Translations under genes and position numbers: made by a program
Notes under the pieces: model-generated
Databases searched by the model: none
Told to the model about the DNA's origin: nothing
What the model saw: only the letters and a program-made list of their open reading frames with translations
Assembly (NCBI RefSeq): GCF_002214165.1
Contig: NZ_CP019964.1
Span: 870,001 to 902,000, forward strand
DNA: 32,000 nucleotides
Source of the DNA: Candidatus Saccharimonadota bacterium
Lineage (GTDB): Archaea > Micrarchaeota > Micrarchaeia > Micrarchaeales > Micrarchaeaceae
Direction of reading: 5' to 3'
Part shown: piece by piece, positions 11,751 to 12,110 of the stretch
Numbering within the stretch: position 1 is the first letter of the stretch
Layout of the letters: every line of letters begins with the position of its first letter

Positions 11751-12110
11751 TCAGTTCAATGAGACGACAAATTTGGATACGACTTTTGAGACATAATCAA
11801 GGACTTCCTTTACCTCTTTTTCTGTCTTGGAGCCTGTGCATATCATCTTGCCATTCTTGAACAGTATTATCGCCTTCGATTCCGGAACCCTGAATATAGC
11901 ACCAGGAAACTGCTCAGGCTCGTAATCTACCGCCTTCACGTCCTTTGACAGGCTGTAAAGGTCTATAGTCGCATGCAGATCTGCACTTACAACTATATTC
12001 TGTATATTGATCTTCGGATTGTCTAATGAAGAATTCCCGCGCTCCTTTACACTCTCTTTTGCAACGGGCTTGGATTTTGAAACTTTTTTGGGATTTTTAG
12101 CTTTGACCAT
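11751..12110 (-). CDS. Single-repeat (half-size) TATA-box-binding-protein domain protein with lysine-rich N-terminal tail
   Basis: 119-aa ORF. [67 protein letters not shown] aligns along its length with one TBP repeat, most like the C-terminal repeat (I.N.V.S.D.....L......[8 protein letters not shown].IYR...PK...L.FSSGK.VC.GAK). Only one repeat is present. TATA-like boxes lie within 45 nt upstream. The stop codon is 2 nt from the convergent GT4 stop, leaving no room for a second repeat. Confidence 0.8.
   Translation of the reverse strand: [119 protein letters not shown]

Follow-up and report, generated by a model that had tools for sequence, protein, structure and literature searches.

The TATA-binding protein (TBP) represents a textbook case of origin by internal duplication. 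To our knowledge, the covalent two-repeat architecture is universal in every TBP studied so far, and the homodimeric single-repeat ancestor, inferred for thirty years, has never been observed in a working transcription system. Here we describe a gene in a 32,000-nt stretch of the genome of Candidatus (Ca.) Mancarchaeum acidiphilum Mia14 (positions 870,001 to 902,000 of contig NZ_CP019964.1; hereafter 'the window') that encodes a TBP of half the usual size, namely a 119-aa protein consisting of one TBP repeat and a basic N-terminal tail. By sequence, fold and functional residues this protein is a member of the TBP family, yet it lacks the defining two-repeat architecture of canonical TBP. Nor is it the oddity of one genome: the half-size TBP is conserved throughout a lineage of minute symbiotic archaea of the Micrarchaeaceae/Micrarchaeales type that includes Mancarchaeum and Micrarchaeum. 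What is its role? We lean, if not strongly, toward a secondarily collapsed TBP whose saddle is rebuilt as a homodimer and that serves as a general TATA-binding factor.

Canonical archaeal TBPs of ~180–190 aa (P. woesei, 1PCZ/1AIS; S. acidocaldarius, 1MP9; M. jannaschii, 2Z8U) share their Pfam family and fold with the window protein. Identity to 1MP9 amounts to 41%, with a root-mean-square deviation (rmsd) of 2.4 Å over one repeat, and the Phe pair, the Asn/Thr pair and the acidic YEPEQFPG stirrup are all the same. The difference lies in the number of repeats, as canonical TBP carries two per chain and the window protein one, such that a saddle would need two chains. Single TBP domains as such have been described before. 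Halobacterial TbpA has one and, like the window protein, is close in sequence to bona fide TBP, but it is one of several paralogues beside full-length TBPs and is non-essential (Brindefalk et al. 2013, PMC3597702), whereas the window-type gene is syntenic, order-wide, conserved above its neighbours and the one TBP locus per genome in our GTDB scan (below). The monopartite TBP-domain proteins of Thermococcales (82–136 aa; P. furiosus NP_578195; PMC3597702, Table 3) likewise consist of a stand-alone single TBP-like domain. These are far diverged from TBP and cluster separately, occur alongside a normal TBP, and no role in transcription has been put forward for them (PMC3597702), whereas the window protein reaches 79 bits against PF00352 and has kept the functional residues. 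Finally, RNase HIII and DNA glycosylases contain domains of the same single helix-grip TBP-like fold, but these are kin at the superfamily level, embedded in multidomain enzymes and devoid of TBP sequence motifs. That single TBP-domain proteins had been reported in a few Archaea was noted in a preliminary description of this locus and holds for TbpA and the Thermococcales group; the window gene differs from these earlier single-domain TBPs in being conserved, canonical-looking and order-wide. Full-text literature searches turned up no account of half-size TBPs in Micrarchaeota or DPANN, DPANN surveys score TBP simply as present, and a monopartite TBP is still drawn as a hypothetical prototype in a structural paper of 2026.

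The coding sequence (11751..12110, minus strand; all positions count from the first letter of the window) is complete, and its translation from the list of open reading frames (ORFs) is 100% identical to ASI14221.1 / WP_088820516.1 (P0001) of Mia14, a cultured 'ARMAN' micrarchaeon (Micrarchaeota, DPANN) with a 952-kb genome. PF00352 matches once only, with aa 33–114 aligned to positions 1–85 of the 85-position model at 79 bits (cut-off 22.9), so that the profile check proposed in the preliminary description places the domain within the TBP family. The full-length TBP models of NCBIfam score 63–88 bits versus cut-offs of 181–347, and every alignment covers one half of the model. Because the protein stays below these cut-offs, it goes by the name 'hypothetical protein' in RefSeq (GenBank: TBP). 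Annotation pipelines thus miss half-size TBP, and surveys may score the respective genomes as being without TBP. The best matches in the PDB are solved archaeal TBPs, the two repeats of 1MP9 scoring equally at 63.9 and 63.5 bits.

In an AlphaFold2 (AF2) model computed with 84 family members, the core is predicted with a local confidence (pLDDT) of ~90 from residue 30 onward and its elements follow the order S1-H1-S2-S3-S4-S5-H2, as in a TBP repeat. The 44 best Foldseek matches of this model are all TBP chains (rmsd 1.4–3.6 Å, mostly 1.4–2.4 Å, over ~85 residues), with OGG1 appearing only at E ~0.4. Identities range from 34 to 41% for solved TBPs in the Foldseek search and from 38 to 54% for full-length archaeal TBPs in the database search. 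The single repeat, supported by PF00352, AF2, Foldseek and the invariant columns, spans aa 33–114 (11769..12014, minus strand). It is followed, after helix H2, by a conserved C-terminal segment, (F/Y)V(V/I)SLN (11754..11768, minus strand), of which aa 115–118 are modelled as a short extra strand; Y114, V115 and I116 are conserved in at least 90% of the 84 family members, and the segment possibly provides a dimer contact. The N-terminal tail (aa 1–31; 12018..12110, minus strand) has a net charge of +6, the whole protein having a pI of 9.5, and is predicted to be disordered (pLDDT <50 at residues 1–24). Many archaeal TBPs have an acidic C-terminal tail, whereas the half-size protein has a basic one at its N-terminus. 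Family members differ in the sequence of their tails, most of which are basic, with medians of 20 aa for length and +3 for net charge, and Lys-rich tails are often present on the two-repeat TBPs of Micrarchaeota, too. The Lys-rich tail is therefore a general trait of Micrarchaeota TBPs and no argument for a chromatin role.

Could a second repeat be hidden nearby? The 3′ limit of the gene is set by a convergent gene for a GT4 glycosyltransferase (10600..11748, plus strand; Pfam Glycos_transf_1 / Glyco_transf_4), the end of which lies 2 nt from the TBP stop codon (11751–11753). The space upstream is bounded by a divergent gene for a geranylgeranyl-reductase-like (GGR-like) flavoprotein (12290..13396, plus strand; Pfam FAD_binding_3 / GGR_cat), leaving an A/T-rich gap of 179 bp with stops in all three frames. 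No second repeat was detected in three-frame translations upstream and downstream of the TBP gene, and no further TBP-like domain came to light anywhere in the 32-kb window with phmmer or with a profile hidden Markov model (HMM) of 443 TBP repeats run on its six-frame translation. Both the 119-aa ORF with one repeat and a basic tail, and the view that no second repeat is concealed by a frameshift or misannotation, had been put forward in the preliminary description and are borne out by these data.

The same description had pointed to TATA-like boxes belonging to the gene, and indeed an archaeal-type promoter can be read from the sequence, with a TATA box, TATAAATA, at 12141–12148 (minus strand; −38 to −31 from the ATG). 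This box is directly preceded by a purine-rich stretch, AAAAAAGG (12149–12156, minus strand), resembling a B recognition element (BRE), the pair spanning −46 to −31. A second A/T-rich, TATA-like stretch, TTTATAAAATATA (12120..12132, minus strand; −22 to −10), is probably part of the initially melted region or the 5′ leader and not a second promoter. In a set of 415 operon-leading ORFs from the window and 80 related loci, the hexamers TAAATA, ATAAAT and TATATA are enriched ~2-fold at −50 to −25. A scan for sigma-70 promoters and terminators, irrelevant to an archaeon, returned background levels only.

How widespread is the half-size TBP? Scanning GTDB, with one genome per species, yielded 80 loci, one per assembly, which we take as at least 80 genomes. 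Nearly all carry the labels Micrarchaeota, Micrarchaeaceae, Micrarchaeales, Micrarchaeia, Mancarchaeum or Micrarchaeum, and among them are the closed chromosome of Ca. Micrarchaeum sp. A_DKE (CP060530), the chromosome OY970071.1 and several metagenome-assembled genomes (MAGs) designated MFD, which appears to refer to the Nanopore-based Microflora Danica project. Several genomes among those with loci L004, L007, L024, L031, L033 and L055 bear the names Methanothrix, Marsarchaeota, Acidiferrales or Baltobacteraceae, apparently as a result of mis-binning or mislabelling. At each of the 80 loci there is exactly one TBP domain within ±6 kb, and the median stop-to-stop space is 125 aa, ~30 aa of which precede the domain. 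The gene is flanked by orthologues of GT4 in 71 and of GGR in 69 of the 80 loci, and among the loci inspected the layout is constant, with the GGR-like gene divergent from, and the GT4 gene convergent with, the TBP gene. For the 61 genomes in which all three genes could be compared, median identity to the window protein is 74% for the TBP core, versus 58% for GT4 and 46% for the GGR-like protein in relation to their window counterparts. This degree of conservation resembles that among bona fide TBPs.

Invariance extends to 33 columns in the 84 family sequences. These include N38, V40, F68, I82, F84, I90 and T92, and the entire stirrup region Y63-E64-P65-E66-Q67-F68-P69-G70; R74 is the sole contact position not flagged as conserved, being Arg or Lys in the family sequences inspected. 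When mapped onto yeast TBP, whose numbering agrees at each residue named, F68/F84 correspond to the DNA-kinking Phe pair (yeast F99/F190 and F116/F207) and N38/T92 to the central minor-groove Asn/Thr (yeast N69/N159 and T124/T215). V40, I82 and I90 correspond to the hydrophobic underside, and E64, E66 and Q67 to the stirrup residues in contact with TFB/TFIIB (yeast E186, E188 and L189). A core role as TBP is favoured by the strong conservation and by the invariance of DNA- and TFB-contacting residues, which speak against competition or a chromatin function. The alternative or competing TATA binder, or chromatin protein, that the preliminary description had envisaged is accordingly disfavoured. 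Regarding the remaining initiation machinery, the gene lists for Mia14 comprise one TFB, one TFE-alpha and RNA polymerase subunits (PMC5498576).

By which mechanism might a TBP with a single repeat operate? From our analysis, homodimerization would be the most plausible working mode. Two identical chains would associate via their S1 strands and H2 helices to form a ten-stranded saddle, the non-covalent equivalent of canonical TBP, and this dimer would bind and bend TATA boxes located ~30–45 nt upstream of genes. Either of the two identical stirrups could then recruit TFB, with the polarity of the promoter being set by the BRE-TFB contact. In Archaea, this contact already sets polarity, and TBP is nearly symmetric. 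The disordered basic tails might add non-specific affinity for DNA. Indirect support for a saddle built from like repeats comes from the predicted structure of a two-repeat TBP termed P0342 (see below).

Where does the half-size protein come from? The nearest two-repeat relatives are TBPs of 186–208 aa labelled Ca. Anstonellales/Anstonellaceae, Ca. Micrarchaeia, groundwater 'Ca. Micrarchaeota' and Ca. Iainarchaeum. Closest by sequence are symmetric two-repeat TBPs of Micrarchaeota (e.g. P0004, P0343, P0349 and P0342), with 45–54% identity to the window protein per repeat, and both of their repeats carry a derived 11-residue motif and LFKNGK.ICTG, in common with the window protein. What distinguishes them are the two repeats per chain and the genomic site. 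The two-repeat gene adjoins, in divergent orientation, an L21e-RpoF(Rpb4)-DUF655 operon (mostly with KsgA), whereas the window-type gene is situated between GGR and GT4.

The two repeats of these Micrarchaeota proteins are unusually alike, N- and C-terminal repeats being 63–91% identical as compared to a median of 40% in the archaeal and eukaryotic TBPs sampled. At the nucleotide level, the repeats are 72–79% identical to one another, identical residues use the same codon in 67–77% of cases versus 40–54% expected from codon usage, and exact in-register runs between the repeats measure 37–56 nt, with a maximum of 90 nt among metagenomic loci. Such codon sharing and exact runs read as the signature of gene conversion or recent duplication. 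Examples of homogenized two-repeat genes are L081:8001-8561, L082:6001-6582 and L084:6001-6582, and examples of proteins are P0004–P0007 and P0282–P0396. Near-identical repeats are a substrate for the in-frame loss of one repeat, and unequal recombination between them could have given rise to the half-size gene, a derived state that would mimic the postulated homodimeric ancestor.

A second type of single-repeat TBP, only 96 aa in length, was found exactly at the ancestral site, divergent from L21e-RpoF-DUF655-KsgA, in two diverged genomes (L093:5612-5902 and L099:7615-7905, both minus strand). Between these two genomes, the TBP is 90% identical, compared to 72% for SerRS, 65% for DS and 51% for KsgA. 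Like the window-type protein, the 96-aa type is a stand-alone repeat with all functional residues and the best-conserved product in its neighbourhood (90% versus 51–74%). It differs in its sequence (48–50% identity to the window protein), in occupying the ancestral locus, in having almost no tail and in belonging to distantly related organisms, indicative of an independent origin. Genes common to the 96-aa-type and window-type loci are only 36–45% identical, and the two half-size types therefore stem from different lineages. A scan of JGI metagenomes with the 96-aa protein returned another 80 loci: 27 with a complete single-repeat gene (metagenomic loci among L100–L135), 10 with a single-repeat gene at a contig end and 43 with a two-repeat gene. 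Where enough flank was available, L21e was the divergent neighbour at 20 of 23 single-repeat and 29 of 33 two-repeat loci. Since L21e adjoins both kinds, one-repeat and two-repeat genes are alternatives at one locus.

The link between the two forms is illustrated by P0342, whose repeats are 91% identical to each other and to both of which the 96-aa protein is 92–93% identical. Judged from sequence, P0342 amounts to two covalently linked copies of the 96-aa protein. A complete saddle is predicted for it (pLDDT 93.6), with TM scores of 0.84–0.92 when compared with canonical TBPs, among them that of P. woesei in its complex with TFB and DNA. In a bootstrapped neighbour-joining tree of repeats (~87 columns), genes of the 96-aa type make up three or more distinct pure clades and one singleton, and the two repeats of a two-repeat gene join one of the clades (82.5% support). 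With several 96-aa clades interleaved with two-repeat forms, repeat number must have changed several times.

Other departures from the usual number of repeats were seen as well. Several ORFs contain three or four TBP repeats or long Lys/Ala-rich tails: P0122 (272 aa), P0292 (269 aa), P0319 (283 aa), P0285 (324 aa), P0121 (376 aa) and P0140 (702 aa). The tails of P0285 are long, Lys/Ala-rich and histone-H1-like, and P0121 looks like a tandem of the eukaryotic TBP core. These ORFs are mostly located on contigs of 1–4.5 kb, and some may be assembly artefacts of tandem repeats. In one assembly labelled 'Ca. Micrarchaeota' (L096:4063-5251, GCA_016207225.1), L21e-RpoF-DUF655 is present without an adjacent TBP gene, with a RecJ/Cdc45-like gene and Orc1/Cdc6 upstream. 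Should the contig belong to Micrarchaeales, its ancestral TBP site would be empty.

It is quite conceivable, though we advance the idea with some reserve, that in Micrarchaeales, and independently in other Micrarchaeota, all initiation relies on homodimeric single-repeat TBP. The covalent two-repeat form would then be dispensable, and repeat number would cycle between one and two (perhaps more) by recombination between repeats that are homogenized by conversion. If true, these organisms would offer a living model of the homodimeric TBP long postulated to have preceded the initiation machinery of Archaea and eukaryotes. The window-type gene supplies a natural single-repeat TBP open to experiment, in a phylum with labile TBP repeat number. 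Provided that the half-size protein is the working TBP, the question of how promoter polarity is achieved with a perfectly symmetric TBP becomes testable in the cultivable co-cultures of Mia14 (with Cuniculiplasma) and A_DKE (with Scheffleriplasma) and with simple recombinant proteins, and so does the question of what covalent fusion and asymmetry have added, and how internal repeats convert, collapse and re-duplicate.

Several observations weigh against a homodimeric general factor. Two arCOG01764 (TBP) proteins are listed for Mia14, as opposed to one in 13 other DPANN genomes (PMC5498576, Supplementary Data 4; TBP is not mentioned in the main text). Our searches were blind to single repeats scoring below ~134 bits against the window protein, and to more divergent two-repeat TBPs. 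The window-type gene resides away from the ancestral TBP site beside L21e-RpoF-DUF655, a location that would also fit an old paralogue. Lastly, although the window-type proteins form one clade with 100% bootstrap support (94% in an earlier tree), the placement of this clade (A-type) relative to the others receives only ~50%.

What, then, is the second arCOG01764 protein of Mia14? It is absent from the window and from ~10 kb upstream of the window start. Database, GTDB and exact-sequence searches yielded no close or identical paralogue, and no symmetric-type two-repeat TBP at least 61% identical to P0004 was found. Its identity was not found in the supplements of PMC5498576, PMC8975820 and PMC7414124 and did not emerge from gene-sharing tests between loci. 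Searching for the L21e operon of Micrarchaeales with an L21e profile returned 38 matches, none from a half-TBP assembly. In a representative-library search, the best 150 matches were mostly two-repeat proteins, the domain scores of which add up, such that a weaker single-repeat family would be masked.

One option is that the 119-aa protein pairs with this second protein, another single-repeat subunit, to form an asymmetric saddle, analogous to the split genes of Nanoarchaeum. The presence of two arCOG01764 proteins in Mia14 would be explained, and a companion table of PMC5498576 likewise enters split genes, RpoB of N. equitans among them, as two. Besides, in alignments with full-length TBP models, tail and first strand of the window protein match the inter-repeat linker and the C-repeat, and all our searches of Micrarchaeales genomes would have overlooked a 96-aa type located at the L21e site. 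The window protein, however, is barely more C-like than N-like (mean identity 37.8% versus 35.8%) and scores equally to both repeats of 1MP9. No second TBP domain was present within ±6–10 kb in any of the 80 genomes, no genome in the GTDB scan had two loci, and the organisms sampled with the 96-aa type are, going by their shared genes, distant from Micrarchaeales. Taken together, we regard a split heterodimer as unlikely, albeit worth keeping in mind.

Alternatively, a canonical two-repeat TBP could be encoded elsewhere, with the half-size protein being an accessory paralogue that acts as a competitor for TATA or TFB, as a promoter-selectivity factor or as a small basic DNA-binding protein. 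The second arCOG01764 entry and the position of the gene outside the ancestral locus would both agree with this, and known single-domain TBPs (halobacterial TbpA and the Thermococcales group) all coexist with full-length TBPs (PMC3597702). Yet among the best 120 matches of either search, no two-repeat TBP bore the label Micrarchaeaceae, Micrarchaeales, Mancarchaeum or Micrarchaeum, or lay on a closed-genome contig. Moreover, the protein is conserved above its neighbours to an extent similar to bona fide TBPs, and all DNA- and TFB-contacting residues bar R74 (Arg/Lys) are invariant, which would be unusual for a decaying or neofunctionalized paralogue. In relatives, a one-repeat gene replaces the two-repeat gene at the same locus. 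An accessory function hence appears improbable, if still deserving of attention alongside the homodimeric general factor that we favour.

Might the single repeat instead have been inherited directly from the TBP ancestor that preceded the duplication, with the two-repeat genes of Micrarchaeota being independent, later duplications? In the repeat tree, all repeats of the Micrarchaeota type, be they from either kind of single-repeat protein or from the N- or C-terminal half of a two-repeat gene, indeed form one clade apart from the N- and C-repeats of other Archaea used as outgroup, with 98.5% bootstrap support. Ongoing homogenization, evident from shared codons and exact runs, explains this topology without an ancient single-repeat stage, however, and in the tree the forms with one repeat are dispersed among those with two. 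Two-repeat TBPs were present in every other archaeal lineage returned by our searches, so that the single-repeat state is most simply seen as derived. Eukaryotes have two-repeat TBPs as well. A primordial relic is thus very unlikely. The half-size TBP is nested among homogenized two-repeat TBPs of its phylum and most likely arose by secondary collapse, being ancestral in form and not in descent. The resemblance to the presumed ancestral state proposed in the preliminary description can therefore be upheld as regards form only. The phylogeny it had called for, which we ran by neighbour joining, does group the window protein with the repeats of Micrarchaeota TBPs, but gives no decisive answer as to N- or C-terminal identity: the repeat is marginally C-like, and the tree shows no global separation of N- and C-repeats.

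An artefact, be it a tandem duplicate collapsed during assembly or a gene fragment in decay, has practically nothing left to recommend it: short-read assemblers can in principle collapse near-identical tandem repeats, and exact runs reach up to 90 nt in related two-repeat genes, but the identical gene with the same neighbours recurs in five additional assemblies made independently (one MAG from NCBI, one JGI metagenome, one ENA assembly and two Logan runs), closed and Nanopore-based genomes carry orthologues, and ORF, promoter and synteny are intact in 80 genomes under strong purifying selection, which excludes both the misassembly that had been a concern at the outset and pseudogenization.

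A viral origin was considered and rejected, as a scan of IMG/VR with the window protein returned no relatives. TBP genes were described in 2025 in two DPANN viruses from acid-mine-drainage sediments (PMC12647753), the same sample series from which many of the MAGs analysed here derive.

The remainder of the window encodes several large proteins. A 1777-aa ORF (3992-9325, minus strand) has, at the corresponding locus of a MAG, a match to the InlB B-repeat (Flg_new_2), and two ORFs of 1097 aa (25473-28766, minus strand) and 489 aa (23930-25399, minus strand) have no Pfam match; these three very large ORFs may encode surface or host-interaction proteins of an episymbiont. A further gene (13463-15220, minus strand) encodes a CARDB-domain protein of 585 aa that is Asn/Ser-rich and bears a membrane anchor at its N-terminus, and is followed by two small ORFs without family match (15225-16331); of the 80 related loci, just 3 have these neighbours. 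Finally, genes for bacterial-type DNA gyrase A and B (18785-23138, minus strand) adjoin RadA.

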